A stretch of DNA of 64,000 nt from Ruminococcaceae bacterium UBA7217 (GTDB lineage Bacteria > Bacillota > Clostridia > Oscillospirales > Acutalibacteraceae): positions 12,024 through 76,023 of the forward strand of contig DKTZ01000035.1 of the NCBI GenBank assembly GCA_002490425.1. The letters are read 5' to 3'. The first letter of the stretch is position 1; each line of letters begins with the position of its first letter. The translations under genes were made by a program, and so were the position numbers. The notes beneath the pieces are model-generated. The model had not been told where the DNA came from and made no database searches. It saw only the letters and a list, made by a program, of their open reading frames with translations. Below, in pieces: positions 11,892 to 49,597 of this stretch.

Positions 11892-14114
11892 TTAACGCTC
11901 GACGTTTATTACGCCCTGTACTTTCTCAATTTTTGCTACGATGCTTTTAAGGTGCTCAATGCCCTCAACCTGAACGGTTACTTCAATAATACATCTGCCG
12001 TCCTTGGTATCGTGTGTGGCAAGCCCTGCAATGTTAACCTTCATATTTGATATTTGCTGGCTGACATCGGCAATAAGCCCTATTCTTTTAAGGCAGGTAA
12101 CGGTGATTGTAGCACTGTATTTGTCAGTCGTTGCCGTATCCCAATGCACCTTTACCCAGCGCTCAGGCTCTGCACAGTGGGCTATATCCGCAGGCACGTT
12201 TACGCAGTCCGCCTTATGAACGGAGACACCGTGCCCTCTCGTTATAAAGCCGATTACCTTATCGCCCGGAAGAGGATTGCAGCAGCGTGAAAACTTAATA
12301 AGACAGTTGTCTATGCCGTCAACAATAATTCCGTCCTTGGATTTTCTTTTAACAGGCTGTTTAGCAGATATTTCCTCAATGTGACTTTTATCGTAATTTT
12401 TGTGATATTCATCTTTAATATACGGCATCTGCTTTGAAACGGAAAGTCCGCCGTAGCCGATTGCCGCATAAAAATCTTCCACAGAGTCCATATGTTGGCG
12501 TGCTGCAAGCTTTTTGACGAATGTTTCGTATTCTTCTTCTGTAAGACGAATATAATTGCGCCTGAACTCACGCTCAATCTCCGCCTTGCCCTCGGCAATA
12601 TTTTCGTCACGCTTTTCGTTTTTAAACCATGAGCGAATTCGGCTTTTTGCCTTGCTTGATTTTGCAATGTTGAGCCAATCCCTACTCGGACCCTTACCGG
12701 GTTGAGAAGAGGTGAGAATTTCAACAATTTCGCCCGTTTTGACAACATAGTCAAGCGGAACTATGCGCCCGTCAACCTTTGCTCCCATCATTTTATGTCC
12801 GACCGCCGTGTGAATAGCATAGGCAAAGTCAATAATAGTTGACCCCTGAGGAACATTGATAACATCGCCCTTGGGGGTAAACACGAGCACCTCTTCGGGA
12901 ACTAAATCAGTTTTAATTGAAGATACTATTTCCCTTGCATCGCCTGACTCCTCCTGAACCTCAAGCATTTCTTTAATCCAGTTAAGTCCGTCGTTAAAGC
13001 TTTGACCTTTGCCGTTAGTCATTCCGATTTTATATTTCCAGTGCGCCGCAATACCGAATTCAGCTGTACGGTGCATATCCCAAGTACGGATTTGCACCTC
13101 AAAGGGAATAGCATCCTTGCCGACAACGGTTGTGTGAAGCGACTGGTAACGGTTAGGCTTCGGCGTTGAAATGTAATCCTTAAAACGCCCCGGAAGAGGA
13201 CTGAACATATCGTGAATTATACCGAGGCAATTGTAGCAGTCGCCTATTGTATCAACAATAATTCGAACTGCGTAAATATCGTAAATCTCGCTGAACTGCT
13301 TATTCTGCATATACATTTTGCGGTATATGCCGTGAACGCTTTTAATTCGTCCGCTGATTGCGGCATTAGGAACAGTCTCCCTGACGCGTTCTAAAATTCG
13401 CTTTTTAATGCTGTTAAGGAATTCGTTGCCCGACGCATTGAATTTGTGAAGCTGTTCTTCAATGCCGGCATAAGCCACGGGGTCAAGAAAGCGTATGGCT
13501 CTGTCTTCAAGTTCCTCTTTAAAGGAACGGATGCCAAGCCTGTGGCTTATAGGCGCAAAAATTTCCAGGGTTTCAAGCGCTTTGTCCCTTTGCTTTTGCG
13601 GGGCAACATATTCAAGAGTACGCATATTGTGAAGTCTGTCAGCAAGCTTAATTACAATAACACGAATGTCCTTACTCATTGCGAGGAGCATTTTGCTGAT
13701 GTTTTCAGCCTGCATTTCTTCTCTTGAATCCCTTTCGGAATACTGTAAATGACCAAGCTTTGTAACGCCGTCAACAAGCACGGCAATTTCACCGCCGAAC
13801 TCGGATTTCAGCTCATCAAGCGTATAATCGGTATCTTCAACAACATCGTGAAGAAGAGCCGCAACAATCGACTGATAATCCATACCGAAATCGACAAGAA
13901 TGTCGGCAACGGCAATGGGGTGAATAATGTACGGCTCGCCCGAACGGCGCAACTGACCGCCGTGCTGTTTCTTTGCAACCTCAAACGCCTTATTGATTAT
14001 ATTTATTTCGTTTTCGCTTTGATGTACTTTTTTTATCTTTTCCAAAAGCTTCGCATAAAGAGCGTCAACATCTACATCCTCTACAGGGGTTTTATCAGTT
14101 TTGATTTCACTCAT
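11892..14114 (-). CDS. relA: bifunctional (p)ppGpp synthetase/hydrolase RelA/SpoT
   Basis: HD domain (HPIAVA..LHDVVEDT), synthetase domain (YQSLHTTV, EVQIRT..MH..AE.G.AAHW.YK), and TGS and ACT regions. The likely start is the ATG at 14114, after GGAGGTG, overlapping the recJ stop as ATGAGTGA. Confidence 0.93.
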   Translation of the reverse strand: MSEIKTDKTPVEDVDVDALYAKLLEKIKKVHQSENEINIINKAFEVAKKQHGGQLRRSGEPYIIHPIAVADILVDFGMDYQSIVAALLHDVVEDTDYTLDELKSEFGGEIAVLVDGVTKLGHLQYSERDSREEMQAENISKMLLAMSKDIRVIVIKLADRLHNMRTLEYVAPQKQRDKALETLEIFAPISHRLGIRSFKEELEDRAIRFLDPVAYAGIEEQLHKFNASGNEFLNSIKKRILERVRETVPNAAISGRIKSVHGIYRKMYMQNKQFSEIYDIYAVRIIVDTIGDCYNCLGIIHDMFSPLPGRFKDYISTPKPNRYQSLHTTVVGKDAIPFEVQIRTWDMHRTAEFGIAAHWKYKIGMTNGKGQSFNDGLNWIKEMLEVQEESGDAREIVSSIKTDLVPEEVLVFTPKGDVINVPQGSTIIDFAYAIHTAVGHKMMGAKVDGRIVPLDYVVKTGEIVEILTSSQPGKGPSRDWLNIAKSSKAKSRIRSWFKNEKRDENIAEGKAEIEREFRRNYIRLTEEEYETFVKKLAARQHMDSVEDFYAAIGYGGLSVSKQMPYIKDEYHKNYDKSHIEEISAKQPVKRKSKDGIIVDGIDNCLIKFSRCCNPLPGDKVIGFITRGHGVSVHKADCVNVPADIAHCAEPERWVKVHWDTATTDKYSATITVTCLKRIGLIADVSQQISNMKVNIAGLATHDTKDGRCIIEVTVQVEGIEHLKSIVAKIEKVQGVINVER

Positions 14115-16158
14115 TTCCGTCACCTCCGTCAATAAAAGAATTTAACCTGTTCAGTATTTCTGAGCTTTCAAGCTCTACTTTTTGGTTATTGCCGTCAAAT
14201 ATTATTTTTCCGTCTGATATTTTGAGAAGCTCCAATTCGCAAAGAATATCAAGAGAGGTCTGCATAATACAGTAATTATGTACGGGACAGCCTGTACGTT
14301 TTACCAGTGTTTCAGTATCAAAGCTCCATTCTCCTTGCTGTTTAATAAAGCTGTATACAGCCAAAAGGAACTCCCTTGACGGTGTAATGAATTTTGCCTC
14401 TTTCGGAGAAAGGCTCTCGCCACGCTTGAATTTTTCGTAAAGCGAAAGCGAGCCGAAAAGCTTATCCTCATCCGTTCCCGAAAAACGGATATTCTTTATC
14501 TGAACAGAGGGCTTTACCTCACCTCTGTATTCGTTTTTATCAATCCTTACTGCTAAATCAAGCGTGTCGCCCTTGCAGTAGGGAAAATCCTCTAACGCAG
14601 TTGAAAATTTCATAGCAGTGAGCGGCGTTCCGCCCTTAAAGAAGGTAAGCCTTAAATGCTTGCCCTCGCCAACACTCTTTATATCGGAAAGAGTAACTCC
14701 GTAAATGCCGAACACAGGCTGGCTGTTACCTGCTCCGTACGGTTCAAGTGCCGATAAAGAAGAAAGTAAATCATTGTTTATATATGCAGGATTTAACTTG
14801 CAGTTGATTAAAAGCTCAGGGACAACAGCTGAAACGGACTGAGCGTATACATTTATTCTGTTAAAAAACTCATTTATATTATCTTTTTTAATACCAAGTC
14901 CGGCCGCCATTGTATGACCGCCGAAATGAGTGAGTAAATCGCCGCAGGATTTAATTGCGTCATAAATTGAAAAACCGTAAATGCTTCTTGCAGAGCCTGT
15001 GCCTTCATCGCCGTCAAAGGTGATTACTATTGCCGGTCTGCCGTATTTTTCGGTAATCCGTGCCGCCACAATGCCGATAACACCGTGGTGCCAGCCCTCA
15101 CCGCAAACAACAATAACCCTTGCATACTTTAACTTGTCATCGGATTCAATGTGTTCTATTGCCGCTTTAGTTATTTCATTTTCAACGGTGTGGCGTTCCC
15201 TGTTACATTCATCAACATCTTTTGCAAGAGAAAAAGCCGAATCTTCATCTTCACTCAAAAGCAATTTAAGAGCTGTTTCGGCAGACGCCATTCTGCCTGC
15301 GGCATTTATTCTCGGCGCTAATGAATAAGTAACTCCCACTGAGCTTATATATTTATCACCCACGCCTGAAATTTGCTTTAATGCATTTATTCCGAAGCAG
15401 GGGTCAGAATTGATTTTAGCAACGCCGTACCGAACAATTGCGCGGTTTTCATCTGTAAGGTCAACAACATCGGCAATTGTGCCGACAGCAATAATATCTG
15501 CATATCTTGAAAGAATATCCATACAGTCGCCGTCATTTAATGCAGACACCACCTTAAAGGCAACGCCTACGCCCGCCCAATCCCGAAATGACAAATTGTC
15601 ATCCTCACGGTGAGGGTCAACAACCGCCACGGCATTCGGCAACGTTTCCGAGGGCTTGTGGTGGTCGGTTACAACAACATCTACACCAAGTGTTTTAGCA
15701 AAATCCACTTCTTCTGCCGAGGAAATCCCGTTATCAACCGTTACAATAAGTTTTACGCCGCTGTCCGCAATTTTTTGGACTGCGCCATTGTTCATTCCGT
15801 ACCCTTCAGTTATTCTGTCGGGAATGTAATAGGTAACGTCAGCACCGACAGACCTTAGAAAAGAGTACATAAGTGCAGTTGAGGTTACTCCGTCAGCGTC
15901 GTAATCGCCGTAAACGCATATTTTCTCAAAGCTGTCTATTGCTTTTTGTATTCTTTGAACCGCCCTGTCCATATCACGGATAAGGTACGAATCGCAAAAA
16001 GCAAAATCCGAATCAAAGAACTCCTCAATATCTTCATATTCGGTAATTCCGCGTGAGGTGAGAATAAGAGCTGTAAACGGGTCTAAGCTGTGTGTTTCGG
16101 CAATATCTGCCGCCGTGTCTTTATCAATATGCGCCAAAGTCCATTTTTTACGGCTCAT
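14107..16158 (-). CDS. recJ: single-stranded-DNA-specific exonuclease RecJ
   Basis: DHH motifs (VYGDYDADGVTS, VTVDNG, VVTDHH), DHHA1 motif (GGH..AAG) and the recJ-relA-dtd synteny. The start is taken at the ATG at 16158. Confidence 0.9.
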   Translation of the reverse strand: MSRKKWTLAHIDKDTAADIAETHSLDPFTALILTSRGITEYEDIEEFFDSDFAFCDSYLIRDMDRAVQRIQKAIDSFEKICVYGDYDADGVTSTALMYSFLRSVGADVTYYIPDRITEGYGMNNGAVQKIADSGVKLIVTVDNGISSAEEVDFAKTLGVDVVVTDHHKPSETLPNAVAVVDPHREDDNLSFRDWAGVGVAFKVVSALNDGDCMDILSRYADIIAVGTIADVVDLTDENRAIVRYGVAKINSDPCFGINALKQISGVGDKYISSVGVTYSLAPRINAAGRMASAETALKLLLSEDEDSAFSLAKDVDECNRERHTVENEITKAAIEHIESDDKLKYARVIVVCGEGWHHGVIGIVAARITEKYGRPAIVITFDGDEGTGSARSIYGFSIYDAIKSCGDLLTHFGGHTMAAGLGIKKDNINEFFNRINVYAQSVSAVVPELLINCKLNPAYINNDLLSSLSALEPYGAGNSQPVFGIYGVTLSDIKSVGEGKHLRLTFFKGGTPLTAMKFSTALEDFPYCKGDTLDLAVRIDKNEYRGEVKPSVQIKNIRFSGTDEDKLFGSLSLYEKFKRGESLSPKEAKFITPSREFLLAVYSFIKQQGEWSFDTETLVKRTGCPVHNYCIMQTSLDILCELELLKISDGKIIFDGNNQKVELESSEILNRLNSFIDGGDGNE

Positions 16159-35963: not shown

Positions 35964-36893
35964 GTGAGAATTTTGAATATTTTACATATTAAATATGCGG
36001 TTGAGGTTGCAAAGGCAGGCTCGCTTAACAAGGCGGCGGAAAAGCTTTTAACTGCCGCACCGAATGTAAGCAGAGCCATAAAAGACCTTGAAGCAGACAT
36101 CGGCATTACAATTTTTGAACGCACAGCAAAAGGAATGGAAGTAACTCCCGACGGCGAGGAATTTATAAGCTATGCCAAAGGAATTTTAAATCAGATTGAA
36201 GAGGTCGAGGCTTTTTACAAAAGCGGCTCGGCAAAAAAGCAGAAATTTTCAATTTCAGTCCCCCGTGCTTGCTATATTTCAGAGGCCTTTGCACAGTTTT
36301 CAAAATCGCTTACTAAAGATTCAGCCGAAATTTTTTATAAAGAAACAAACTCTCAGCGTACAATCCGCAATATACTCGAAAACGGCTACAAGCTCGGAAT
36401 TATAAGATATGCTGAAAATTACGACAGATATTTCAAGGCAATGCTTGAGGAAAAGGGTCTTTGCTATGAGCTTGTTACAGAATTTTCATATTCGCTGATT
36501 ATGAGTGCAGAAAATCCGCTTGCGAAAAAAGAAACGGTAACATTTGACGATTTAACCGATTTCATTGAAATTGCCCACGCTGACCCGTACGTTCCCTCAA
36601 TGCCCCTTTCAAAGGTGGTCAAGGAAGAACTGCCCGACAACATTAACCGCCGCATATTCATTTTTGAGCGTGCAAGCCAATTTGATTTGCTTTCAAACAA
36701 TCCCGAAACCTTTATGTGGGTATCCCCTGCTCCGGAAAAACTGTTAAAGCGCTTCGGACTTGTTCAAAAAAAATGTGTTGATAACAAAAAAATCTATAAA
36801 GATGTGCTGATTTACAAGAACGGGTACAAATTATCCTCTCTTGACAGAGAATTTATTACGGAGCTTTGCAATTCCAAAAGAAAATATATGTAA
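35964..36893 (+). CDS. LysR-family transcriptional regulator
   Basis: N-terminal wHTH (LHIKYAVEVAKAGSLNKAAEKLLTAAPNVSRAIKDLEADIGITIFERTAKGM) and a C-terminal substrate-binding fold. The start is ambiguous between the GTG at 35964 and the TTG at 35973. Confidence 0.85.
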   Translation: MRILNILHIKYAVEVAKAGSLNKAAEKLLTAAPNVSRAIKDLEADIGITIFERTAKGMEVTPDGEEFISYAKGILNQIEEVEAFYKSGSAKKQKFSISVPRACYISEAFAQFSKSLTKDSAEIFYKETNSQRTIRNILENGYKLGIIRYAENYDRYFKAMLEEKGLCYELVTEFSYSLIMSAENPLAKKETVTFDDLTDFIEIAHADPYVPSMPLSKVVKEELPDNINRRIFIFERASQFDLLSNNPETFMWVSPAPEKLLKRFGLVQKKCVDNKKIYKDVLIYKNGYKLSSLDREFITELCNSKRKYM

Positions 36894-37049: not shown

Positions 37050-39755
37050 ATGGAAGCTGAGAAATACGAAATCATTGACAGCGTTGAAAAGCTTGAAGAA
37101 GCAATAAAACGCACAAGAGAAGCTCAGGCAGAATTTGCAAAATTCACTCAGGAGCAGGTTGACAAAATCTTTCTTGCGGCGGCGTCGGCTGCAAATAAAG
37201 CAAGAATTCCGCTTGCAAAAATGGCTGTTGAAGAAACAGGAATGGGTGTTGTCGAGGACAAGGTAATTAAAAACAACTATGCCGCTGAATACATTTACAA
37301 CGCTTACAAGGACACAAAGACCTGCGGCGTTATTGAAGAGGATAAGGCTTTCGGCATTAAAAAGATTGCTGAGCCTATAGGCGTTATTGCCGCTGTTATC
37401 CCCACAACGAACCCCACATCTACCGCAATTTTCAAGTGCCTTATCGCTCTTAAAACACGCAATGCAATTATTATTTCTCCCCACCCGAGAGCTAAAAAGT
37501 CCACTATTGAGGCGGCAAAAATCGTTCTTGAAGCCGCTGTCAAGGCAGGCGCTCCCGAGGGCATAATCAACTGGATTGACATCCCCTCTCTTGAACTTAC
37601 AAATACCGTTATGAAAGAAGCGGACATTATCCTTGCAACAGGCGGCCCCGGAATGGTTAAAGCGGCTTATTCAAGCGGTAAACCTGCTCTGGGCGTAGGA
37701 GCCGGCAATACTCCCGCAATTATTGACGACAGTGCGGATATTCTTCTTGCAGTTAACTCAATTATTCATTCAAAGACCTTTGACAACGGTATGATTTGCG
37801 CATCTGAGCAGTCAGTCATTGTCCTTAAAGATGTTTATGACGCAGTTAAGGCGGAATTTGCCGCAAGAGGCTGTTATTTCCTCAAAGGTACTGAAATCGA
37901 AAAGGTTAGAAAGACAATCATAATAAACGGTGCGCTTAACGCAAAAATCGTAGGTCAGTCCGCCGCAAGAATTGCAGAGCTTGCAGGGGTAACCGTTCCC
38001 GAGGGCACAAAAATTCTTATCGGCGAGGTTGAAAATGTTGATATAAGCGAAGAATTTGCACACGAAAAGCTCTCACCCGTTCTTGCAATGTATAAAGCCG
38101 CAGACTTTGAGGACGCTCTCTCAAAAGCCGAGCACCTTATCGCTGACGGCGGCTACGGACATACATCTTCCGTTTATCTTAACGAGGTTACCGAGCAGGA
38201 AAAACTCCGTGAGTTTTCGGCGAGAATGAAAACCTGCCGTGTTCTTGTAAACACTCCGTCATCACACGGCGGTATCGGCGACCTTTACAACTTTAAGCTT
38301 GCTCCCTCTCTTACCCTCGGCTGCGGTTCTTGGGGCGGCAACTCGGTTTCGGAAAATGTCGGTGTAAAGCATCTTATTAACATTAAGACTGTTGCAGAAA
38401 GAAGGGAAAATATGCTTTGGTTCCGTGCGCCCGAAAAGGTTTACATTAAAAAGGGATGTCTGCCCGTTGCTCTTGACGAGCTTAGAACTGTAAGAAAAGC
38501 GCAAAAGGCATTTATTGTTACAGACTCATTCCTCTATGAAAACGGATACACTAAGCCGATTACGGACAAATTAGACGAAATCGGCATTGCACATACAACC
38601 TTCTTCAATGTTCAGCCCGACCCGACTCTTAAAAATGCTCAGGACGGCGTTGAGCAAATGAGAGCATTCAAGCCCGACACAATCATTGCTTTGGGCGGCG
38701 GTTCTGCAATGGACGCAGCAAAAATTATGTGGGTTCTTTACGAGCACCCCGAAGCAGACTTTATGGATATGGCAATGCGCTTTATTGATATCCGTAAGCG
38801 TGTTTACACCTTCCCCAAAATGGGCGAAAAAGCTTATTTCATCGCAATTCCCACATCGGCAGGCACAGGCTCAGAGGTTACCCCCTTTGCGGTTATCACC
38901 GATGAGAAAACGGGAGTTAAATACCCCCTTGCAGACTATCAGCTTATGCCCAATATGGCGATTATTGATACTGATTTCCATATGTCCGCACCAAAAGGTC
39001 TTACAGCGGCATCGGGTATTGACGCAGTAACACACGCTCTCGAAGCTTATGCGGCAATGCTTGCAACGGATTACACAGATTCACTTGCTATCGGTGCTCT
39101 TAAGAGTATATTCAAATATCTCCCCCGTGCTTACGACAACGGTCAGAACGATATTGAGGCAAGAGAAAAAATGGCTAACGCCGCAACAATGGCAGGTATG
39201 GCATTTGCAAATGCATTCTTAGGTGTTTGCCACTCAATGGCTCATAAACTCGGTGCATTCCACCACCTGCCCCACGGCGTTGCAAACGCACTTATGATTG
39301 AAGAGGTTCTGAGATTTAATGCGGCGGAAGCTCCCGCAAAAATGGGTACATTCTCACAGTATGACCACCCGCACACACTCGCACGCTATGCTGAAGTTGC
39401 AGACGCTTTAGGTCTCGGCGGAAAAACAGATGAAGAAAAGCTCGAAAATCTTATCAAGGCAATAAACGACCTCAAAGCAAGAGTCGGTATTAAAGAAACT
39501 ATTAAGGATTACGGCGTTGACGAAAAGGTATTCCTTGACAGACTTGACGAAATGACCGAACAGGCATTTGACGACCAGTGCACGGGCGCCAACCCGAGGT
39601 ATCCGCTTATGAGTGAAATTAAGCAGATGTACCTTAACGCTTACTACGGCGGCAGGCATTTCACCGAAAAAGCAATGCCAACAGCTTTAGATATTGAAGA
39701 TGTAGCCGAAACAGATAAAGTTAAAAAGAATTACCGCAAAGGTAAAAAAGCATAA
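37050..39755 (+). CDS. adhE: bifunctional acetaldehyde-CoA/alcohol dehydrogenase
   Basis: 901 aa. The N-terminal half is an ALDH domain (MICASEQS catalytic-Cys region) and the C-terminal half is an Fe-ADH domain (GGGSAMDAAK, the HSMAHKLGAFHHLPHG metal site). Confidence 0.95.
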   Translation: MEAEKYEIIDSVEKLEEAIKRTREAQAEFAKFTQEQVDKIFLAAASAANKARIPLAKMAVEETGMGVVEDKVIKNNYAAEYIYNAYKDTKTCGVIEEDKAFGIKKIAEPIGVIAAVIPTTNPTSTAIFKCLIALKTRNAIIISPHPRAKKSTIEAAKIVLEAAVKAGAPEGIINWIDIPSLELTNTVMKEADIILATGGPGMVKAAYSSGKPALGVGAGNTPAIIDDSADILLAVNSIIHSKTFDNGMICASEQSVIVLKDVYDAVKAEFAARGCYFLKGTEIEKVRKTIIINGALNAKIVGQSAARIAELAGVTVPEGTKILIGEVENVDISEEFAHEKLSPVLAMYKAADFEDALSKAEHLIADGGYGHTSSVYLNEVTEQEKLREFSARMKTCRVLVNTPSSHGGIGDLYNFKLAPSLTLGCGSWGGNSVSENVGVKHLINIKTVAERRENMLWFRAPEKVYIKKGCLPVALDELRTVRKAQKAFIVTDSFLYENGYTKPITDKLDEIGIAHTTFFNVQPDPTLKNAQDGVEQMRAFKPDTIIALGGGSAMDAAKIMWVLYEHPEADFMDMAMRFIDIRKRVYTFPKMGEKAYFIAIPTSAGTGSEVTPFAVITDEKTGVKYPLADYQLMPNMAIIDTDFHMSAPKGLTAASGIDAVTHALEAYAAMLATDYTDSLAIGALKSIFKYLPRAYDNGQNDIEAREKMANAATMAGMAFANAFLGVCHSMAHKLGAFHHLPHGVANALMIEEVLRFNAAEAPAKMGTFSQYDHPHTLARYAEVADALGLGGKTDEEKLENLIKAINDLKARVGIKETIKDYGVDEKVFLDRLDEMTEQAFDDQCTGANPRYPLMSEIKQMYLNAYYGGRHFTEKAMPTALDIEDVAETDKVKKNYRKGKKA

Positions 39756-39773: not shown

Positions 39774-40523
39774 ATGAAACTTGACAGAGTAATAGCAGTA
39801 AGAAACAGTAAAACCGTTTACCGTGACGGCGACAGATGCATTAAAGTTTTCAATGAGGATTATTCCAAGGCAGATGTACTCAACGAGGCTCTCAATCAGG
39901 CAAGAATTGAGGAAACAGGTCTTAACATTCCTAAAATTCTTGAAGTCAGTATGATTGACGGCAAATGGGCAATTGTTTCGGAATATATCAAGGGTAAAAC
40001 TCTTCAGCAGCTTATGGATGAAGACCCTGACAAGAAAAACGAATATATTGAGATGCTTGTTGACATTCAGCTCGGTATTCACGAAAAGGAATGTCCGCTT
40101 CTTAACAAGCTTAAGGATAAAATGAACAGAAAAATCTGCCAGAGCACACTTGACGCAACAACACGCTATGACCTGCACACCCGCCTTGAGGGTATGCCCA
40201 AGCACAAAAAGGTTTGCCACGGCGACTTTAATCCCTCAAACGTAATAATTACAGAGGACGGCACGCCCTATATTATTGACTGGGCACACGCAACACAGGG
40301 CAATGCCTCGGCAGACGCCGCAAGAACATATCTTCTCTTCTGGCTCGGCGGCGACATTGAGGGTGCAAAGACATATCTTGATATATTCTGCAAAAAAAGC
40401 AATACCGCAAAGCAATATGTTCAAAAATGGATGCCCATTGTTGCCGCTTCACAGTCAGTTAAGGGCAATCAGGCAGAAAGAGAATTCCTGCTTTCCTGGG
40501 TAGATGTTGTAGATTACGAATAA
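39774..40523 (+). CDS. APH/choline-kinase-fold (eukaryotic-like kinase superfamily) phosphotransferase-like protein
   Basis: Candidate ATP-binding Lys in CIKVF (K24), hinge SEYIKG, catalytic-loop (Brenner) motif CHGDFNPSNVII (H149-N156) and metal-binding IIDWAHA (D169). Confidence 0.65.
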   Translation: MKLDRVIAVRNSKTVYRDGDRCIKVFNEDYSKADVLNEALNQARIEETGLNIPKILEVSMIDGKWAIVSEYIKGKTLQQLMDEDPDKKNEYIEMLVDIQLGIHEKECPLLNKLKDKMNRKICQSTLDATTRYDLHTRLEGMPKHKKVCHGDFNPSNVIITEDGTPYIIDWAHATQGNASADAARTYLLFWLGGDIEGAKTYLDIFCKKSNTAKQYVQKWMPIVAASQSVKGNQAEREFLLSWVDVVDYE

Positions 40524-40535
40524 GGAGTTAAAATT

Positions 40536-40775
40536 ATGAAGGTTACGGTTTGCATCGGCAGTTCATGCCACATTAAGGGTTCAAGACAGGTTGTTGAACA
40601 GCTTCAGTATCTTATCAGCGAAAACGGTCTCGGCGATAAGGTTGAGCTTGGCGGCACATTCTGTATGGGCAAATGCCAGCAGGGCGTCTGCGTTACCATT
40701 GACGGCGAGTTTTTCTCAGTTTCACCTGAAACAGTGGAAACATTCTTTAATGACAATATAAAAGCAAAGCTTTAA
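40536..40775 (+). CDS. thioredoxin-like [2Fe-2S] ferredoxin (NuoE/HydC-like, 79 aa)
   Basis: Cys pattern C6-x4-C11 ... C43-x3-C47 in VCIGSSCHIKGS...GGTFCMGKCQQG. Confidence 0.7.
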   Translation: MKVTVCIGSSCHIKGSRQVVEQLQYLISENGLGDKVELGGTFCMGKCQQGVCVTIDGEFFSVSPETVETFFNDNIKAKL

Positions 40776-40834
40776 TACTGCGTAATTTTTAAAAAGGGTT
40801 ACATCTGCCGGAAAAAACGGCGGGTGTGCCCGAT

Positions 40835-40863
40835 TTGACGTTTTTATACATTTCAGTTACAAT
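40835..40863 (+). promoter_or_regulatory. near-consensus sigmaA promoter for hydS-pp2c-hydA
   Basis: TTGACG (40835-40840), 17-nt spacer, TACAAT (40858-40863). Confidence 0.55.
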
Positions 40864-40897
40864 GATATTAAAATAAATTGAGAGGATGTAACGGATA

Positions 40898-42577
40898 ATG
40901 CCGAACTGTTTAACATTAAAAAAATCCAACTGCAAAAACTGCTATAAATGTATTCGCCACTGTCCCGTAAAGGCAATCCGTTTTTCGGGAAATCAGGCTC
41001 ATATCATCGGCAACGAGTGTATTCTTTGCGGTCAGTGCTTTGTTGTCTGTCCTCAAAATGCAAAGGAAATTGTTGACGAAACCGAAAAGGTTAAGGTTCT
41101 TCTTCAGTCGGGCGACCCCGTTATTGTCAGTCTTGCACCGTCATTTGTTGCCAATTACGACGGCACGGGAATAAATTCAATGAGAAAGGCACTTAAAAAG
41201 CTGGGCTTTTACGATGTTGAAGAAACGGCAATCGGTGCAACAATAGTAAAAACAGAATACGAAAGAATGATTAAAGAGGATGAGAGGGATCTTATAATTT
41301 CCTCATGCTGTCATTCCATAAATCTTCTTATTCAAAAGCATTACCCCGCGGCGCTCCCGTACCTTGCGGACATAATGTCCCCAATGCAGGCGCACTGTAC
41401 CGATATAAAAAAGCGTTATAAAAATGCTAAAACCGTTTTCATAGGACCTTGCGTTGCAAAAAAGGACGAGGCAGAGCATTACGAGGGAATTGTCGACGCA
41501 GTTTTAACCTTTGAGGAACTAACCCAATGGCTGAAAGCAGAAAACATTGAAATTGAGTCGGAAACAGACAACGATGTTTGCAGCCGTGCGCGTTTCTTCC
41601 CGACAACAGGCGGTATACTTAAAACTATGGCTCAGGAAAACACGGGTTATACATATTTAGCAATTGACGGAGTTGAAAACTGTATTGCCGCACTTAAAGA
41701 CATCGAAAGCGGTAAAATTCATAACTGCTTTATTGAAATGTCAGCTTGTGTCGGCAGCTGTTCGGGCGGCCCCGTTATGGAGAAATACCACCGCACAGCG
41801 GCAGTTAAGGATTACATTACCATTGCAAATTATGCAGGTCCTAAGGATTTTGAGATATCTCAGCCTGCGGCAAAGGACCTTAAAAAGAACTTTGAATTTA
41901 TTGAACAGCGTCTTCCGCAGCCGAGCGAGAGTGAAATTAACGCAGTGCTTCGTCAGATGGGCAAATTCAAGCCCTCACAGGAGCTTAACTGCGGCTCCTG
42001 CGGCTATAATACCTGCCGTGAAAAGGCGGCGGCGATAATTCAGGGTAAGGCTGAAATTTCAATGTGTCTGCCTTTCCTTAAGGATAAAGCCGAGAGCTTT
42101 TCCGATACTGTTGTCAACAATTCACCAAACGGACTTATTGTACTTAACGAACAGCTTGAGGTTCAGCAGATTAACAAAGCCGCAAAAGAAATTATGAACA
42201 TCCGCTATGACTCGGATGTTCTCGGCACGCAGGTTATAAGAATCCTTGACCCTGCGCCCTTTATGAAGGTTCGTGACACAGGCAGAGGAATACACAACGA
42301 GCGTGTTTACCTTGCCGAATACAAGCGTTACGTTGAGCAAACCATTGTTTACGACCGTGATTCAAGAATGCTTGTGGGCATTATGCGTGATGTTACCGAC
42401 GAGCAGTATGAGAGAGAAAAGAAAGAGGATATAAGCAAGCAAACAGTTGAGGTTGCCGACAAGGTTGTTGAAAAGCAGATGAGAATTGTTCAGGAAATAG
42501 CATCACTTCTCGGTGAAACCGCCGCTGAAACGAAAATTGCACTTTCAAAGCTTAAGGAGTCAATAACCGATGAATGA
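40898..42577 (+). CDS. hydS: HydS-type (group C, putative sensory) [FeFe]-hydrogenase homologue with a C-terminal PAS domain
   Basis: Two CxxCxxCxxxCP ferredoxin motifs (residues 11-22 and 41-52). H-domain motifs are SSCCHS (135-140), GPCVAKKDE (183-191) and EMSACVGSCSGGP (280-292). An extra motif C365-x2-C368-x4-C373-x16-C390 follows, then a PAS-like region (about 400-520) and a helical tail. Confidence 0.8.
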   Translation: MPNCLTLKKSNCKNCYKCIRHCPVKAIRFSGNQAHIIGNECILCGQCFVVCPQNAKEIVDETEKVKVLLQSGDPVIVSLAPSFVANYDGTGINSMRKALKKLGFYDVEETAIGATIVKTEYERMIKEDERDLIISSCCHSINLLIQKHYPAALPYLADIMSPMQAHCTDIKKRYKNAKTVFIGPCVAKKDEAEHYEGIVDAVLTFEELTQWLKAENIEIESETDNDVCSRARFFPTTGGILKTMAQENTGYTYLAIDGVENCIAALKDIESGKIHNCFIEMSACVGSCSGGPVMEKYHRTAAVKDYITIANYAGPKDFEISQPAAKDLKKNFEFIEQRLPQPSESEINAVLRQMGKFKPSQELNCGSCGYNTCREKAAAIIQGKAEISMCLPFLKDKAESFSDTVVNNSPNGLIVLNEQLEVQQINKAAKEIMNIRYDSDVLGTQVIRILDPAPFMKVRDTGRGIHNERVYLAEYKRYVEQTIVYDRDSRMLVGIMRDVTDEQYEREKKEDISKQTVEVADKVVEKQMRIVQEIASLLGETAAETKIALSKLKESITDE

Positions 42578-43742
42578 TTTATGTGCCGATATTGGATATA
42601 AAAGTATAAATCATTACGGCGAAGAACTTTGCGGCGACCATGTTGACATTGTTGAGCCGAATGATGAATCAACCGTTATTGTGCTTTCGGACGGTCTTGG
42701 AAGCGGCGTTAAGGCGAGCATTCTCTCTACTCTTACGTCAAAAATTATTTCTACTATGCTGTCCGAAGGCTTATCGCTTGAGGAATGTGTTGAAACCATA
42801 GCCGCAACCTTACCTGTTTGCTCGGTAAGGGGCGTTGCTTATTCGACATTTACGATTATTCACCTTAAGCAAAACCAAACCGCTGAAATTATTCAGTACG
42901 ATAACCCCCATGCAATTATTATCCGTGACGAGAAAAATTGGGACTATCCCAAAACGGAAATGAATATAGGCGGAAAGAAAATTTTTAAATCCGTTATCAA
43001 ATTGCAGGAAAATGACATTTTTATCGCAATGAGCGACGGCTGTCCCCACGCAGGCATAGGCACTGCCTACAATTTCGGCTGGAAGAGAGAGGATATAATC
43101 ACCTTTATGGAGGCGCTCGCACACGTCGGATACACTGCGAAAACGCTTTCCACAATGCTTGTTGACGAATGTGACAATCTTTACGGTCACGAGCCGGGCG
43201 ACGATGCAACAGCCTGTGTTGTAAAAATACGAAAAAGAGAGCCGATGAATATTCTGTTCGGCCCGCCCTCAAACCGTGACGATGCAGACAGAATGATGTC
43301 CCTGTTTTTCGGGAAAGAGGGCAAGCACATTATCTGCGGCGGAACAACCTCGTCAATTGCCGCTAAATTTTTGAGAAAGCCTCTCAGAGCATCGCTTAAT
43401 TTTGAGCAGAGCGACATTCCCCCTATTGCGGAGCTTGAGGGTGTTGACCTCGTAACCGAGGGCGTTATTACTGTCAACAGAGTACTTGAATACGCTAAGG
43501 ACTACCTTGCGGAGAATAAGCAGTACGAGCATTGGGGCTTTAAAAATGACGGAGCGTCTTTAATTTGCCGTTTGCTTTTTGAAGAGGCTACGGATATAAA
43601 CTTTTATGTTGGCAGAGCAATAAATCCTGCTCACCAAAACCCCGACTTGCCCATAAATTTCAGCATAAAAATGAATCTTGTTGAAGAGCTTTCAAAATGT
43701 CTTAAACAGATGGGCAAAAAAATCAAAGTCAGTTATTTTTAA
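42570..43742 (+). CDS. PP2C/SpoIIE-family serine phosphatase with an uncharacterised ~170-aa C-terminal domain
   Basis: CGD (21-23), DGLGSGVKAS (41-50), MSDG and DDATACVV motifs. The start overlaps the hydS stop (ATGAATGA). Confidence 0.8.
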   Translation: MNDLCADIGYKSINHYGEELCGDHVDIVEPNDESTVIVLSDGLGSGVKASILSTLTSKIISTMLSEGLSLEECVETIAATLPVCSVRGVAYSTFTIIHLKQNQTAEIIQYDNPHAIIIRDEKNWDYPKTEMNIGGKKIFKSVIKLQENDIFIAMSDGCPHAGIGTAYNFGWKREDIITFMEALAHVGYTAKTLSTMLVDECDNLYGHEPGDDATACVVKIRKREPMNILFGPPSNRDDADRMMSLFFGKEGKHIICGGTTSSIAAKFLRKPLRASLNFEQSDIPPIAELEGVDLVTEGVITVNRVLEYAKDYLAENKQYEHWGFKNDGASLICRLLFEEATDINFYVGRAINPAHQNPDLPINFSIKMNLVEELSKCLKQMGKKIKVSYF

Positions 43743-43808
43743 GTCGGCGAGTATAATCAGATAAAAAACTGTTTCGGATTGTATTTGTCAACTCAAGGAG
43801 AAAGCAGT

Positions 43809-45230
43809 ATGAGAAAATTTGACACCAAGGTTCAGTATTTGAAATATAAGGTTTTAAGAGAAGTGGCTAACCGTGCGTGGAACGACACTTTGCTTCCGAC
43901 CTTGTTTGATATACCAAAGGCAATAGTTCCCGGCAAGACCTCGACCATGCGTTGTTGTGTCTACAAAGAACGCGCAATTTTGGGCGAACGTGTAAAAATC
44001 GCAATGGGCGGCAACAAGGAAAACCCAAATGTTATTGAGGTTATTGACATTGCCTGTGATGAATGTCCTGCGGCAGGTTATGAGGTAACCGACTCGTGCA
44101 GAGGCTGTCTTGCCCACAGGTGTGAGGACGTCTGCAAAAGAGGAGCTATTTCATTTGACCACAATCACGTGGCACACATTGACAAGTCAAAGTGTGTTGA
44201 ATGCGGTCAGTGCGCAAAGGTTTGCCCATATTCGGCGATTATTAACCGTAAGCGCCCCTGCCAAATCGCCTGCAAGGTAAAGGCAATTTCGATAAATGAA
44301 GAAAATGCCGCCGCTATTGACAATAACAAGTGTATTCAGTGCGGTGCTTGCGTTTACCAGTGCCCGTTCGGCGCAATTACCGATAAATCGTACATCTTGA
44401 ATGTAATTGATATGATAAAAAAGAGCGAGAACAATCAAAAATACAAGGTTTATGCCGTTGTCGCTCCGTCAATTTCAAGTCAGTTTAATTATGCAAAGCT
44501 CGGTCAGGTTATTTCGGGGCTTAAAGAGCTTGGCTTTTTTACAGTTGTTGAAGCGGCACTCGGAGCGGATATGGTAGCAATGGCGGAATCAAAAGAACTC
44601 AGCGAAAAGGGCTTCCTTACAAGCTCATGCTGTCCTGCATTTGTGCAGTATATAAAATCCTCATTCCCTGCTCTTTTGCCCTTCGTTTCTCATAACCTTT
44701 CCCCCATGGCAACGCTTGCGAAATACATAAAGGAAACAGACGGAAATGCAAAGGTTGTGTTTATAGGTCCGTGCACAGCTAAAAAAGCCGAAGCACAGCT
44801 TGACAGTGTGAAGCCTTATGTTGACTCAGTGCTTACCTTTGAGGAGCTTCAGGCGCTTTATGACAGCAAGGATATTGACATTACAACGCTTCCGGAAGAT
44901 GTGCTTGACAATGCCTCTTATTACGGCAGAATTTTTGCCCGTTCCGGCGGACTTTCCGATGCAGTGGCACAGGGACTTAAAGAACAAAATATTGACTTTA
45001 CTGTAAAACCCGCAGTTTGCGACGGAATTGAGGCTTGCAAGGTGGCTCTTCTCAAAAAAAGCAAAAATGTGCTTGATGCCAACTTTATTGAGGGTATGGC
45101 GTGCATTGGAGGGTGCATCGGCGGCGCAGGCTGTCTTACCCACGGCGAAAAGAACAAGGCTGAGGTTGACAAATATGGCAAAGAGGCTTATGAAAAAACC
45201 ATAGGCGATGCCGTATCTTTTATTAAATAA
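43809..45230 (+). CDS. hydA: [FeFe]-hydrogenase, catalytic type (473 aa; motif pattern suggests group B)
   Basis: Cys-rich N-terminus (RCC, CDEC, CRGC..C...C). Two 4Fe-4S motifs (CVECGQCAKVCP, CIQCGACVYQCP). H-cluster motifs TSSCCPAF, IGPCTAKKAE and EGMACIGGCIGGAGC. The ATG at 43809 follows AAGGAG. Confidence 0.85.
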   Translation: MRKFDTKVQYLKYKVLREVANRAWNDTLLPTLFDIPKAIVPGKTSTMRCCVYKERAILGERVKIAMGGNKENPNVIEVIDIACDECPAAGYEVTDSCRGCLAHRCEDVCKRGAISFDHNHVAHIDKSKCVECGQCAKVCPYSAIINRKRPCQIACKVKAISINEENAAAIDNNKCIQCGACVYQCPFGAITDKSYILNVIDMIKKSENNQKYKVYAVVAPSISSQFNYAKLGQVISGLKELGFFTVVEAALGADMVAMAESKELSEKGFLTSSCCPAFVQYIKSSFPALLPFVSHNLSPMATLAKYIKETDGNAKVVFIGPCTAKKAEAQLDSVKPYVDSVLTFEELQALYDSKDIDITTLPEDVLDNASYYGRIFARSGGLSDAVAQGLKEQNIDFTVKPAVCDGIEACKVALLKKSKNVLDANFIEGMACIGGCIGGAGCLTHGEKNKAEVDKYGKEAYEKTIGDAVSFIK

Positions 45231-45249: not shown

Positions 45250-45281
45250 GGGCAGATACTTTTTTTGTATCTGCCTTTTTG
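45250..45281. terminator. bidirectional terminator between hydA (+) and the B12-regulated operon (-)
   Basis: AGGCAGATAC-TTTTTTT-GTATCTGCCT followed by TTTTT. A-rich sequence on the other side serves the minus strand. Confidence 0.75.
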
Positions 45282-47828: not shown

Positions 47829-49505
47829 TTACGCTTTGTAATCCGTCGCATAGGTGTCTGCAATTGACTGAACCTCATCTTTTGAAATAACGCCGTCAAT
47901 TGTTATGCCGTCTGCTCTTTGAAGATTTACCTTTTCGAGTGTGTCACGCTCAAGCAGGTGTCTTAAGGCAAGTCTTGCGTCAACAAGGTCAATGGTGCCG
48001 TCCATATTAACATCACCGTATTTATCAAGATAAACAGACATATAGTCAGCGTCAATATTGTAATACAGGAACTGAGTGAACAGCGGATTTGAATGAACGG
48101 TATACTGTTTGTCAGCCGTTATAAGCCATGCGTGAAGCGCCGCTGAGCTGTCGCTGTAAAACTTAACGTGATCCAAATTCTTAATAAACCATGTGCACTC
48201 GGGGAAAGCGCAGGTAGAAGCATCAACCACTGTGTCGGGTGAAACGTGATTGTGCCCGTCGGAATTCTTCTGAGCATAATTTTCACCGAGAGTTGTGTTT
48301 CTGTCTGCAACCGTTGCGCCGTAGCTTGTGTGTGCTGTTTCGATTATGCCGTCTGAGTTCATTGTGGACGACGGTGTTACGGGAGCTATCTGGCGGTTAT
48401 AGTTTGAAACTATGCTGAAGCAGATATTTTCATCCTTATAATACTCGTCACAACGCTCTTTAAGTGTTGCCTGAACCTCATCGTGATAAGCCGTCAGCTT
48501 TTCAATGTAAGAATCAGACGGGCGGAATGAGAAAGTATCGTTGTTATACATATAGTTAATTGCTTCGTCGAATTTATCTTCGGGGACAAATGACCAAACG
48601 CCGGCATACATTCCGAAATACGGAATCAAAAGCTCATCATAAAGTCTGTCCTTATATTCGCCTTCATTAAGGAGCGGAGCAAATTTTTCAATAACCTTTT
48701 CAAAAAGTCCTGTGTATTTTAAGAGCTCACCTAAAGCATTTTTATCGGGACTGCCGTTAATTGCCTGAACCAAAATGTCGGTAAGTCCGTCAGCGTCAAC
48801 GCTGAGTTTGCCTGTGAAAAGGTCACCGCACATTTCAAGTCCTGTAAATGCTCCTGAGAACATACCTATATTTTTAATATCTTTTGTTCCGTACTGCGCT
48901 AAATATGCCTGAACAATGCAAGTACCCATTGACTGACCGTTTATTGACACCTTGTCGTGGCCTGTTGTTTTCTTTACCTTTTGAATATAATCGTTAAGGT
49001 CTTTAGCGGTATCCATAGGGCTTCTGCGCCAGTCATGGCTGAAAATAAACGTGTGGTCGCCGCCGACTGTTTTGGCACATTCAAGGGAAAGTCCGTCCTG
49101 ACCGTCGCCTTTGATTTTGTAATCGTATGTATCGCAGCTCTCTTCATAAAAGCGTTCAACCGTAACCGTCGGGTCAACCGAGTCGCCGTTTTCGTCACAT
49201 TTAATCGGGTCAAAAAGCTGTTTTGCTGCAGGAATAACTGAGTCAAGCAAAGCGCCTGCGTCACCGTCCGAAAGGAACTGTAAAAGTGATGGAACACAAG
49301 GCAGAACCGCCTCAACTATTGTTTTTGCCTCAGGAGCAAAAACCTGAGTTCCCTCGCCGTTAACAAGCGGAACATGACCGAAGCCTACTACGGAAACTAC
49401 GGGAGTTTTACCGCAGTTGCACTTTTTCTCTGCCGCAAACGACGGAGCAAGCATTGAAAACATCATCAATGCGCAAAGTATTACGCAAACTATACGTTTT
49501 TTCAT
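47829..49505 (-). CDS. secreted alpha/beta-hydrolase (LCAT/PGAP1-like lipase/esterase) with a C-terminal dockerin
   Basis: Signal peptide MKKRIVCVILCALMMFSMLAPSFA. HDWR motif and nucleophile elbow GQSMGT. The C-terminus is dockerin-like (GDVNMDGTIDLVDARLALRHLL ... ADGITIDGVISKDEVQSIAD). Confidence 0.7.
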   Translation of the reverse strand: MKKRIVCVILCALMMFSMLAPSFAAEKKCNCGKTPVVSVVGFGHVPLVNGEGTQVFAPEAKTIVEAVLPCVPSLLQFLSDGDAGALLDSVIPAAKQLFDPIKCDENGDSVDPTVTVERFYEESCDTYDYKIKGDGQDGLSLECAKTVGGDHTFIFSHDWRRSPMDTAKDLNDYIQKVKKTTGHDKVSINGQSMGTCIVQAYLAQYGTKDIKNIGMFSGAFTGLEMCGDLFTGKLSVDADGLTDILVQAINGSPDKNALGELLKYTGLFEKVIEKFAPLLNEGEYKDRLYDELLIPYFGMYAGVWSFVPEDKFDEAINYMYNNDTFSFRPSDSYIEKLTAYHDEVQATLKERCDEYYKDENICFSIVSNYNRQIAPVTPSSTMNSDGIIETAHTSYGATVADRNTTLGENYAQKNSDGHNHVSPDTVVDASTCAFPECTWFIKNLDHVKFYSDSSAALHAWLITADKQYTVHSNPLFTQFLYYNIDADYMSVYLDKYGDVNMDGTIDLVDARLALRHLLERDTLEKVNLQRADGITIDGVISKDEVQSIADTYATDYKA

Positions 49506-49597
49506 TTCAAACATCCTTTCCCAAATTGAAACAATATATAACCGAATTTATTTTACCATAAATCTCCTTTGAAATCAACTGTGTTCTTTTAACAAAA

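Follow-up and report, generated by a model that had tools for sequence, protein, structure and literature searches.

The gene treated here lies in a 64,000-nucleotide (nt) stretch of contig DKTZ01000035.1 from Ruminococcaceae bacterium UBA7217 (the window), where it encodes a kinase-like protein between adhE and genes for a small ferredoxin, the putative sensory hydrogenase HydS, a PP2C phosphatase and the hydrogenase HydA. We are very confident that the protein is the orthologue of Rumal_3402 of Ruminococcus albus, that it is an intact phosphotransferase of the aminoglycoside phosphotransferase/choline kinase (APH/ChoK) fold and that it is a member of an adhE/hfs fermentation-switch operon, with Cthe_0424 as the likely counterpart in Clostridium thermocellum. 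More tentatively, we infer that the kinase may be the phosphorylating arm of this switch, with the PP2C opposing it and HydS gating; to this reading, which also supposes a protein substrate, we give a little under an even chance.

Fold, active site and orthologues of the kinase

In the open reading frame (ORF) list of the window, the kinase ORF has an ATG start and encodes 249 amino acids (aa). A first-pass annotation, made from the letters of the window alone, had read a kinase signature in it, and these motifs are exact in the translation: CIKVF at 22–26 (with K24), HGDFNPSN at 149–156 and IIDW at 167–170 (with D169). The distances that it gave, 18 nt from adhE and 12 nt to the ferredoxin gene, agree exactly with the ORF coordinates, which put the end of adhE at 39755 and the start of the ferredoxin gene at 40536. 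In the raw sequence, each of the two gaps shows a Shine–Dalgarno-like motif (GGGAGGG and AAGGAG).

Pfam matches residues 16–190 to APH (PF01636) with 52.1 bits against a gathering threshold of 23.2 (E = 1e-13). No NCBIfam model reaches its cutoff on the kinase, the best being TIGR02172 (a Fibrobacter succinogenes paralogous family) with 61.2 versus 228.2 bits. The Pfam RIO1 match (39.8 bits) is confined to residues 133–175 and covers 42 of the 187 profile positions, short of a full-length match; that of TCAD9 is limited to the catalytic-loop segment, and the NCBIfam Bud32 models give 38 versus 125 and 35 versus 188 bits. RIO, Bud32 and Hanks-type kinases are all absent from the top 50 Foldseek matches of the kinase model.

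We modelled the kinase with AlphaFold from an alignment of 105 diverse sequences, with a predicted local distance difference test (pLDDT) score of 96.2 and a predicted template modelling score of 0.92. The model has a bilobal fold and a C-terminal helical subdomain, with five helices after residue 178. K24 in strand 21–26 and E38 in helix 32–46 make up the β3 Lys/αC Glu pair, the Brenner motif H-x-D-x4-N is present as H149-G-D151-FNPS-N156, and D169, which precedes W170, is the Mg-binding Asp. The top Foldseek matches in the PDB are APH(3')-Ia, APH(4)-Ia, LicA, capreomycin phosphotransferase and YtaA, with 12–17% identity; APH(4)-Ia superimposes with a template modelling (TM) score of 0.70–0.72 over ~281 columns. 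When the family profile is compared with PDB sequences, LicA is the best match (6.8e-9, in the C-lobe), and the 'CHGD..P.N' and 'DW....G....D.A' motifs of the family align with the corresponding motifs of LicA. The first-pass annotation had seen no recognisable substrate-binding extension; this claim fails, since the usual APH/ChoK C-terminal helical lobe is present, five helices following the DW motif and ~280 columns aligning to APH(4)-Ia at a TM score of 0.72. Its assignment of the protein to the APH/ChoK-fold kinases with an intact active site is borne out by the Pfam APH match, residue conservation, the AlphaFold model and Foldseek. The kinase is thus predicted to be an ATP-dependent phosphotransferase with the APH/choline-kinase fold and to be competent for catalysis.

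Conservation of the catalytic residues, which had been proposed as a check, holds for five of them and not for the sixth. The 106 full-length sequences that we compared as representatives of 50%-identity clusters conserve K24 (97%), E38 (92%), H149 (98%), N156 (99%) and D169 (94%) at 92–99%, but only 77% have D151; in 24 of the 106, N, E, H, S, C, K or G takes its place. All six residues are retained in 68% of the representatives. The gene had also been called an orphan, which it is not: the family comprises 3842 representatives of 50%-identity clusters at E ≤ 0.001 (357 at E ≤ 1e-30), the 90%-identity database yields >8000 close matches, and R. albus 7 has a counterpart in the same gene order. 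A search profile built from 51 distant representatives only brought back the hyper-abundant rumen clade and was of no further use.

The closest genome match of the kinase, with 98% identity, is found in the Ruminococcaceae metagenome-assembled genome (MAG) UBA3329. The R. albus 7 kinase WP_013483408 (Rumal_3402) is 81.5% identical and likewise has 249 aa. It is encoded on the 420-kb plasmid pRUMAL01 (NC_014824.1) in the order LysR–Rex–adhE–phosphotransferase–Fdx–Fdx–HydS–SpoIIE–HydA (Fdx, ferredoxin), and the window is collinear with this locus, with identities of 66% for LysR, 75% for AdhE, 81% for the kinase, 77% for Fdx, 72% for HydS, 80% for PP2C and 79% for HydA. We assigned the R. albus cluster to the tags Rumal_3400–3407 by gene order. 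In RNA sequencing data published in 2019, co-culture with Wolinella (low H2) lowered these eight genes 130-, 121-, 114-, 109-, 107-, 122-, 101- and 90-fold; Rumal_3402, annotated as 'aminoglycoside phosphotransferase', is the 114-fold gene. Co-expression with adhE, which the first-pass annotation had thought probable, is thus documented for the R. albus orthologue.

A role for this kinase has also been proposed before. In Eminoglu et al. (2017; PMC5707799), the model of Zheng et al. (2014) is given as one in which the PAS domain of HydS signals to an adjacent downstream Ser/Thr protein kinase, and because of its position in the cluster this kinase can only be Rumal_3402. The statement that neither role had been described therefore does not hold: the same cluster is known from R. 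albus 7, a comparable annotation exists in C. thermocellum, and the kinase idea had, as quoted in PMC5707799, been out since 2014.

In C. thermocellum, a cluster that is co-regulated under stress comprises Cthe_0422 (Rex), Cthe_0423 (AdhE), Cthe_0424 ('aminoglycoside phosphotransferase'), Cthe_0425–0427 (annotated as hypothetical protein, Fe-S cluster protein and SpoIIE), Cthe_0428 (NuoE-like) and Cthe_0430 (hydrogenase); the hfs operon of this species is Clo1313_1796–1793. By annotation and position, Cthe_0424 is likely the counterpart of the window kinase. Tsac_0415 of Thermoanaerobacterium saccharolyticum also adjoins adhE, and we rejected it as a homologue: it is divergently transcribed, genus-restricted and has no assigned function. 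Distant plasmid matches of the kinase in Rhizobium, Bacillus and C. estertheticum (22–34% identity) probably represent other subfamilies.

Two further observations concern the distribution of the cluster. Plasmid pRUMAL01, which carries all of it in R. albus, is mobilizable. In addition, the cluster occurs with 75–95% protein identity in MAGs labelled Acutalibacteraceae, Ruminococcus, Lachnospiraceae, Butyrivibrio and Eubacterium, which could reflect horizontal spread or loose taxonomic labels.

Genomic linkage and divergence of the kinase

We compared 180 loci, made up of 80 genome loci (83–98% kinase identity), 80 metagenome loci (63–86%) and look-ups of distant representatives and plasmid matches. 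Note that the genome scan retained only relatives of at least 83% identity and that the metagenome scan, run with a 10-sequence profile, returned mostly kinases 63–86% identical to that of the window; the distant contexts come from the look-ups of cluster representatives. Across these loci, the association of the kinase with the HydS/PP2C module, which had been suggested as a test, is strongly non-random. Where both flanks are informative (n = 97), the kinase gene has adhE and Fdx–HydS in 63 loci, adhE only in 20, HydS only in nine, HydA only in one and neither in four. Once the loci are dereplicated at 95% kinase identity, 59 of 75 clusters have HydS within 2 kb downstream, and 62 of the 72 clusters with upstream sequence have AdhE as the immediate upstream neighbour; at 80%, the counts are 13 of 21 and 19 of 28.

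Eleven independent contexts at 38–57% identity (nine look-ups, Collinsella and a lone short contig) were available, and in eight of them Fdx–HydS directly follows the kinase (K). The gene orders are Rex–adhE–K–Fdx–HydS–PP2C–HydA (L083), K–Fdx–HydS–PP2C–HydA (L086), LysR–K–Fdx–HydS–PP2C–HydA–Ldh (L089 and L092; Ldh, lactate dehydrogenase), LysR–K–Fdx–Fdx–HydS–PP2C–HydA (L091), Rex–K–Fdx(–Fdx)–HydS–PP2C (L093 and L100), K–Fdx–Fdx–HydS (L094), K–HydA (L090) and adhE–K in the actinobacterium Collinsella aerofaciens (L082); the short contig (L099) holds the kinase gene alone.

Links to adhE and to HydS each occur without the other, so that the linkage has two sides that can come apart: the kinase is both an accessory of the hfs-type module and, in its own right, a companion of adhE. 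To call it the partner of the PP2C, as one of the two roles offered at first had done, is thus too narrow: the tie to adhE is about equally strong, some loci have adhE only, and some HydS–PP2C pairs lack the kinase. In a large human-gut clade whose kinase is ~65% identical (L108; similarly L121, L125, L132 and L139–L144), adhE is followed by a strong intrinsic terminator, a gap of ~750 nt and a separate kinase unit, and no hyd module lies within 7 kb of the kinase gene. The gap itself is AT-rich and non-coding (L108, 6200–7000), and Rfam finds nothing in it.

Two kinds of distant locus deserve separate mention. L089 and L092 lack adhE and have one or two lactate dehydrogenase genes after hydA in the same orientation (12367–14421 and 12604–13557, respectively); it looks as if lactate dehydrogenase, another NADH sink, replaces AdhE in the module there. 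In L090 (7001–9183), from Christensenellaceae, a family member of 43% identity has N-C-N in place of H-G-D and lies directly upstream of a group-B-like HydA; HydS, PP2C, ferredoxin and adhE are all absent from the locus, and this protein may be a non-catalytic companion of the hydrogenase.

In six of eight distant loci, no other member of the module is as poorly conserved as the kinase. In L086, it is 42% identical, compared with 66% for Fdx, 67% for HydS, 72% for PP2C and 75% for HydA, and in L094 it is 49% identical versus 81% and 75% for its partners. Such fast divergence would resemble the evolution of a regulator, and we counted it in favour of a switch. The full K/E/H/D/N/D set is present in 121 of 121 kinases adjacent to adhE, and active-site variants (E38A, D151E/N/C, H149N and D169G) all occur in loci with no adhE detected upstream, although the upstream flank is too short in a few. 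This pattern, which is confounded by phylogenetic relatedness, fits a requirement for catalysis where AdhE adjoins the kinase and its relaxation elsewhere.

Neighbouring genes of the operon

The features around the kinase gene are listed in the table. The first-pass annotation had described the neighbours as AdhE, a ferredoxin, HydS, a PP2C and a hydrogenase, and Pfam and NCBIfam matches agree with it in each case.

Table. Features of the operon and its borders, with positions in the window
Feature	Position	Strand	Evidence
LysR-type transcription regulator, upstream of operon	35964–36893	+	Pfam HTH_1 1.6e-16
adhE, bifunctional acetaldehyde-CoA/alcohol dehydrogenase, 901 aa	37050–39755	+	NCBIfam NF010378, 1402 bits versus cutoff 951
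Kinase, 249 aa, APH/ChoK fold, orthologue of R. albus Rumal_3402	39774–40523	+	ORF, Pfam APH, AlphaFold
Thioredoxin-like [2Fe-2S] ferredoxin, 79 aa, HfsA-like	40536–40775	+	Pfam 2Fe-2S_thioredx 4.5e-7
HydS, putative sensory group C3 [FeFe] hydrogenase with FeS and PAS domains, HfsB-like	40898–42577	+	Pfam Fe_hyd_lg_C 2.8e-52, FeS 2e-11, PAS 2e-4
PP2C phosphatase, SpoIIE/RsbU-type, HfsC-like	42570–43742	+	Pfam SpoIIE at residues 32–220
HydA, monomeric group B [FeFe] hydrogenase, HydA2/HfsD-like	43779–45230	+	NCBIfam TIGR04105, 564.9 bits versus cutoff 450
Hairpin between hydA and convergent downstream gene, 3' end of cluster	45251–45275	.	Terminator-like site called on minus strand, 9-bp stem, T-run

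Two features of the window agree, though weakly, with co-transcription of these genes: the gaps are short and contain ribosome-binding sites, and no strong plus-strand terminator-like site lies from adhE to hydA. In the interval from adhE to hydA, we found no plus-strand terminator-like site with a stem comparable to that of the hairpin after hydA, just two weak 5-bp sites. The hairpin is itself weak evidence because the counts of terminator-like sites match chance expectation; in the scan for them, promoter and terminator sites both occur at chance frequency. Rex boxes give eight matches in the window versus 6.5 expected, none of them upstream of adhE. In this respect, R. albus, C. thermocellum and L083 differ from the window, which has neither a rex gene nor, ahead of adhE, a Rex box. 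Rfam has no match in the operon. Genes farther out on both sides are unrelated to it and mostly on the opposite strand. One of them, at 47829–49514 on the minus strand, encodes an α/β-hydrolase with a C-terminal type I dockerin and suggests a cellulosome-bearing, Ruminococcus-like host.

The LysR homologue occupies the same position in R. albus, and in the distant L089, L091 and L092 it directly precedes the kinase gene. The regulator (compare 4556–6251 in L081, the R. albus locus) is 50–87% identical across loci where the kinase is only 40–56% identical.

Cys residues C6, C11, C43 and C47 of the ferredoxin are invariant in 13 homologues. In the distant loci that we looked up, there are always one or two ferredoxin copies between the kinase gene and hydS. 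In R. albus (compare L081, 10013–10261) and many relatives, this interval holds a tandem pair of thioredoxin-like [2Fe-2S] ferredoxin genes, and the window has a single one, followed by a gap of 122 nt (40776–40897) before hydS. The gap is ~270 nt in close relatives and might contain a decayed second copy.

The supplement of PMC6776011 assigns Rumal_3405, the R. albus orthologue of HydS, to FeFe group C3, and HydDB describes this group as 'phosphatase-linked (putative)'. HydA of the window is 79% identical to Rumal_3407.

In profile searches as well as in Foldseek, the N-terminal domain of the PP2C matches SpoIIE, RsbX and Rv1364c (RsbU domain). All Foldseek matches of its AlphaFold model (pLDDT 88) are to the PP2C domain. 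On sequence and model, the protein is assigned to the SpoIIE/RsbU/RsbX subgroup of protein phosphatases, known from partner-switching systems. Residues 226–390 (43245–43739 in the window) form a second α/β domain of ~165 aa that is conserved as strongly as the phosphatase domain. This domain has invariant GP, CGG and DL.TEG motifs and is found across Clostridia down to ~40% identity; CGG lies at a strand–helix junction, and in at least 90% of sequences the next residue is T. Pfam finds no match for it, and a SIS-like match is insignificant (E = 0.037). The domain could bind a ligand or a partner protein.

Role of the kinase and comparison with known systems

In the reading that we favour, the order adhE–kinase–[2Fe-2S] ferredoxin–HydS–PP2C–HydA would represent an operon responsive to H2 or redox state, and HydS, as a protein with an H-cluster and a PAS domain, would be the H2 input. 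The kinase would write a phosphorylation that the SpoIIE-type PP2C would erase. Together they would set the phosphorylation state of some protein of the ethanol/H2 branch, the outcome being the division of reducing equivalents between ethanol and H2. AdhE would be the first candidate substrate because adhE–kinase pairs persist without the hyd module; alternative targets would be HydA, the small ferredoxin, HydS/PP2C or a LysR/Rex regulator. We consider it unlikely, in the more specific form, that the kinase directly phosphorylates AdhE, and possibly the group B HydA, with HydS controlling the erasing PP2C in a post-translational H2 switch; Collinsella and the human-gut clade would then retain the AdhE–kinase half only. 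A variant in which the kinase makes a phospho-metabolite that is sensed by the C-terminal domain of the PP2C is less likely.

Several observations weigh against a kinase that acts on a protein in opposition to the PP2C. The closest folds (APH(3'), APH(4), LicA and capreomycin phosphotransferase; TM scores of 0.6–0.72, 14–17% identity) all belong to small-molecule kinases. The Hanks-type model PF00069 (Pkinase) stays below threshold, with 21.7 versus 31.7 bits over residues 144–181 only, and sequence profile matches to StkP and MEK in the PDB involve only the N-lobe or the catalytic loop. SpoIIE-type PP2Cs pair with GHKL kinases and STAS-domain substrates, and Pfam finds no HATPase_c or STAS match among the operon proteins or those immediately flanking them. 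In Collinsella and the human-gut clade, the kinase accompanies adhE alone, with no PP2C within 7–9 kb. Conversely, HydS–PP2C is found without the kinase in Monoglobus (Fdx–HydS–PP2C–HydA), in Peptoclostridium acidaminophilum (HydS–PP2C) and on a Cellulosilyticum-like contig, where the pair adjoins the bifurcating HydABC. At least one catalytic residue is lost in 32% of the family representatives, some of which still lie upstream of HydS. Also, our literature search found no biochemical or genetic test of any member of the kinase family. Literature searches on AdhE phosphorylation were uninformative.

Some of these points would be met by a small-molecule kinase that has no protein substrate and acts on a metabolite or cofactor tied to AdhE or the hydrogenase, or makes a phospho-ligand sensed by the module. 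We regard this as possible, if on the unlikely side. It would agree with the full-length structural likeness to APH(4)-Ia, APH(3')-Ia, LicA and the capreomycin phosphotransferase Cph, with the CHxD...N and DW...G....D.A motifs that align with LicA, with a C-lobe helical subdomain that is the substrate pocket in APH/ChoK enzymes and with loci that have adhE alone or HydA alone and no PP2C. The C-terminal domain of the PP2C, with its CGG motif, could bind a phospho-ligand, but the SIS-like match (E = 0.037) that would point this way is not significant. However, no candidate substrate emerges. All curated NCBIfam models of small-molecule kinases score far below their cutoffs (e.g., thiamine kinase 28.8 versus 299 and APH(3') 29.2 versus 205), and the fastest evolution in the operon together with loss of the catalytic Asp in ~23% of representative clusters would be unexpected for a metabolic enzyme. 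An antibiotic (aminoglycoside or macrolide) phosphotransferase that is in the operon by accident is very improbable. The Pfam APH match, the resistance enzymes among the best structural matches and the public annotations as 'aminoglycoside phosphotransferase' speak for it, but the NCBIfam scores again remain far from the cutoffs (APH_3p 29.2 versus 205, APH_3p_I 23.9 versus 400, MphL 22.2 versus 612, APH_4_Ia 16.3 versus 725 and APH_9_Ia 15.6 versus 680 bits). Identity to solved APH structures is 14–17%, the isoelectric point of the kinase is 5.8, the gene keeps a fixed slot in a fermentation operon across lineages down to ~40% identity, and its R. albus orthologue changes ~114-fold with H2.

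Loss of catalytic residues raises a further alternative, namely, a pseudokinase-like switch or scaffold in which binding of ATP or ADP, rather than phosphotransfer, modulates HydS/PP2C, HydA or AdhE. D151 is replaced in 24/106 representatives while K24, H149, N156 and D169 are 94–99% conserved, variants with HGN and HGE still lie directly upstream of Fdx–HydS, the NCN variant lies directly upstream of HydA, and sequence divergence is rapid. However, the window protein and all 121 of the 121 homologues adjacent to adhE keep the K/E/H/D/N/D set, which argues for catalysis in this clade, and a Glu at position 151 could still serve as base. Such a role is plausible for the variant clades and less so for the window kinase, for which we hold it to be decidedly unlikely. 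Returning to the switch with a protein substrate, the tie of the kinase to adhE is independent of HydS–PP2C, catalysis is intact beside adhE and many HydS–PP2C pairs dispense with the kinase; AdhE is therefore a concrete substrate candidate. Three observations may be new: that the linkage to adhE is separable, how the loss of active-site residues is distributed, and how often HydS–PP2C pairs lack the kinase.

These results bear on how fermenters shift from ethanol to acetate and H2 when a partner keeps H2 low, a question that has stood since interspecies hydrogen transfer was described, and the HydS/PP2C/kinase cluster is the leading candidate for a putative H2 sensor. Publication of the cluster and of the hypothesis on its kinase dates from 2014, and that of the co-regulation data from 2019; what the window contributes is one more member, from an uncultured relative. 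The new comparative patterns sharpen experiments and leave the kind of system unchanged. Clo1313_1797 of C. thermocellum is genetically tractable, and the matter is relevant to the engineering of ethanol yield and to the output of H2 and methane from rumen and gut.

The nearest known system is the cluster of R. albus 7 (Zheng et al. 2014; Greening et al. 2019), which has the kinase in the same slot between adhE and the ferredoxin/hydS genes and shares the upstream LysR; it differs in having a rex gene and two ferredoxin genes, whereas the window has no rex and one ferredoxin gene. Cthe_0424 (Clo1313_1797), which we liken to the window kinase by annotation and position only, likewise lies between adhE and the genes for Fdx, HydS, SpoIIE and hydrogenase, in an operon with an extra NuoE-like gene.

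With APH(4)-Ia, APH(3')-Ia and LicA, the kinase shares the bilobal fold with a C-terminal helical subdomain (TM scores of 0.62–0.72), the Brenner motif and the Mg-binding Asp; the 'CHxD' and 'DW...D.A' motifs are common to it and LicA/ChoK. It differs from the APH/ChoK enzymes in its low identity (14–17%), in missing the curated cutoffs and in a context that is regulatory and fermentative rather than one of resistance or teichoic-acid synthesis. Kinases of the APH fold that are reported to act on proteins include Escherichia coli YihE/SrkA and the Bacillus subtilis spore kinases CotS/YtaA. These are precedents at the level of the fold only; YtaA (2q83) is among the Foldseek matches of the kinase, with a TM score of only 0.53–0.55, and one source calls a member of the kinase family 'RdoA'.

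Hydrogen sensing with a phosphorylation output is known from Ralstonia eutropha, where, as summarised in PMC5707799, HoxBC with HoxJ/HoxA is likewise a hydrogenase-like H2 sensor whose phosphorylation output acts on hydrogenase genes. That system uses a [NiFe] sensor with a histidine kinase and a response regulator, whereas the window has an [FeFe] protein with an APH-fold kinase and a PP2C. Partner-switching modules (SpoIIE/RsbU, SpoIIAB/RsbW and SpoIIAA/RsbV) share their PP2C subgroup with the operon, and both would follow the same logic, in which a kinase and a phosphatase act on a single switch protein. They differ in having a GHKL kinase and a STAS protein, neither of which we found in the operon, and the window kinase is of an unrelated fold.

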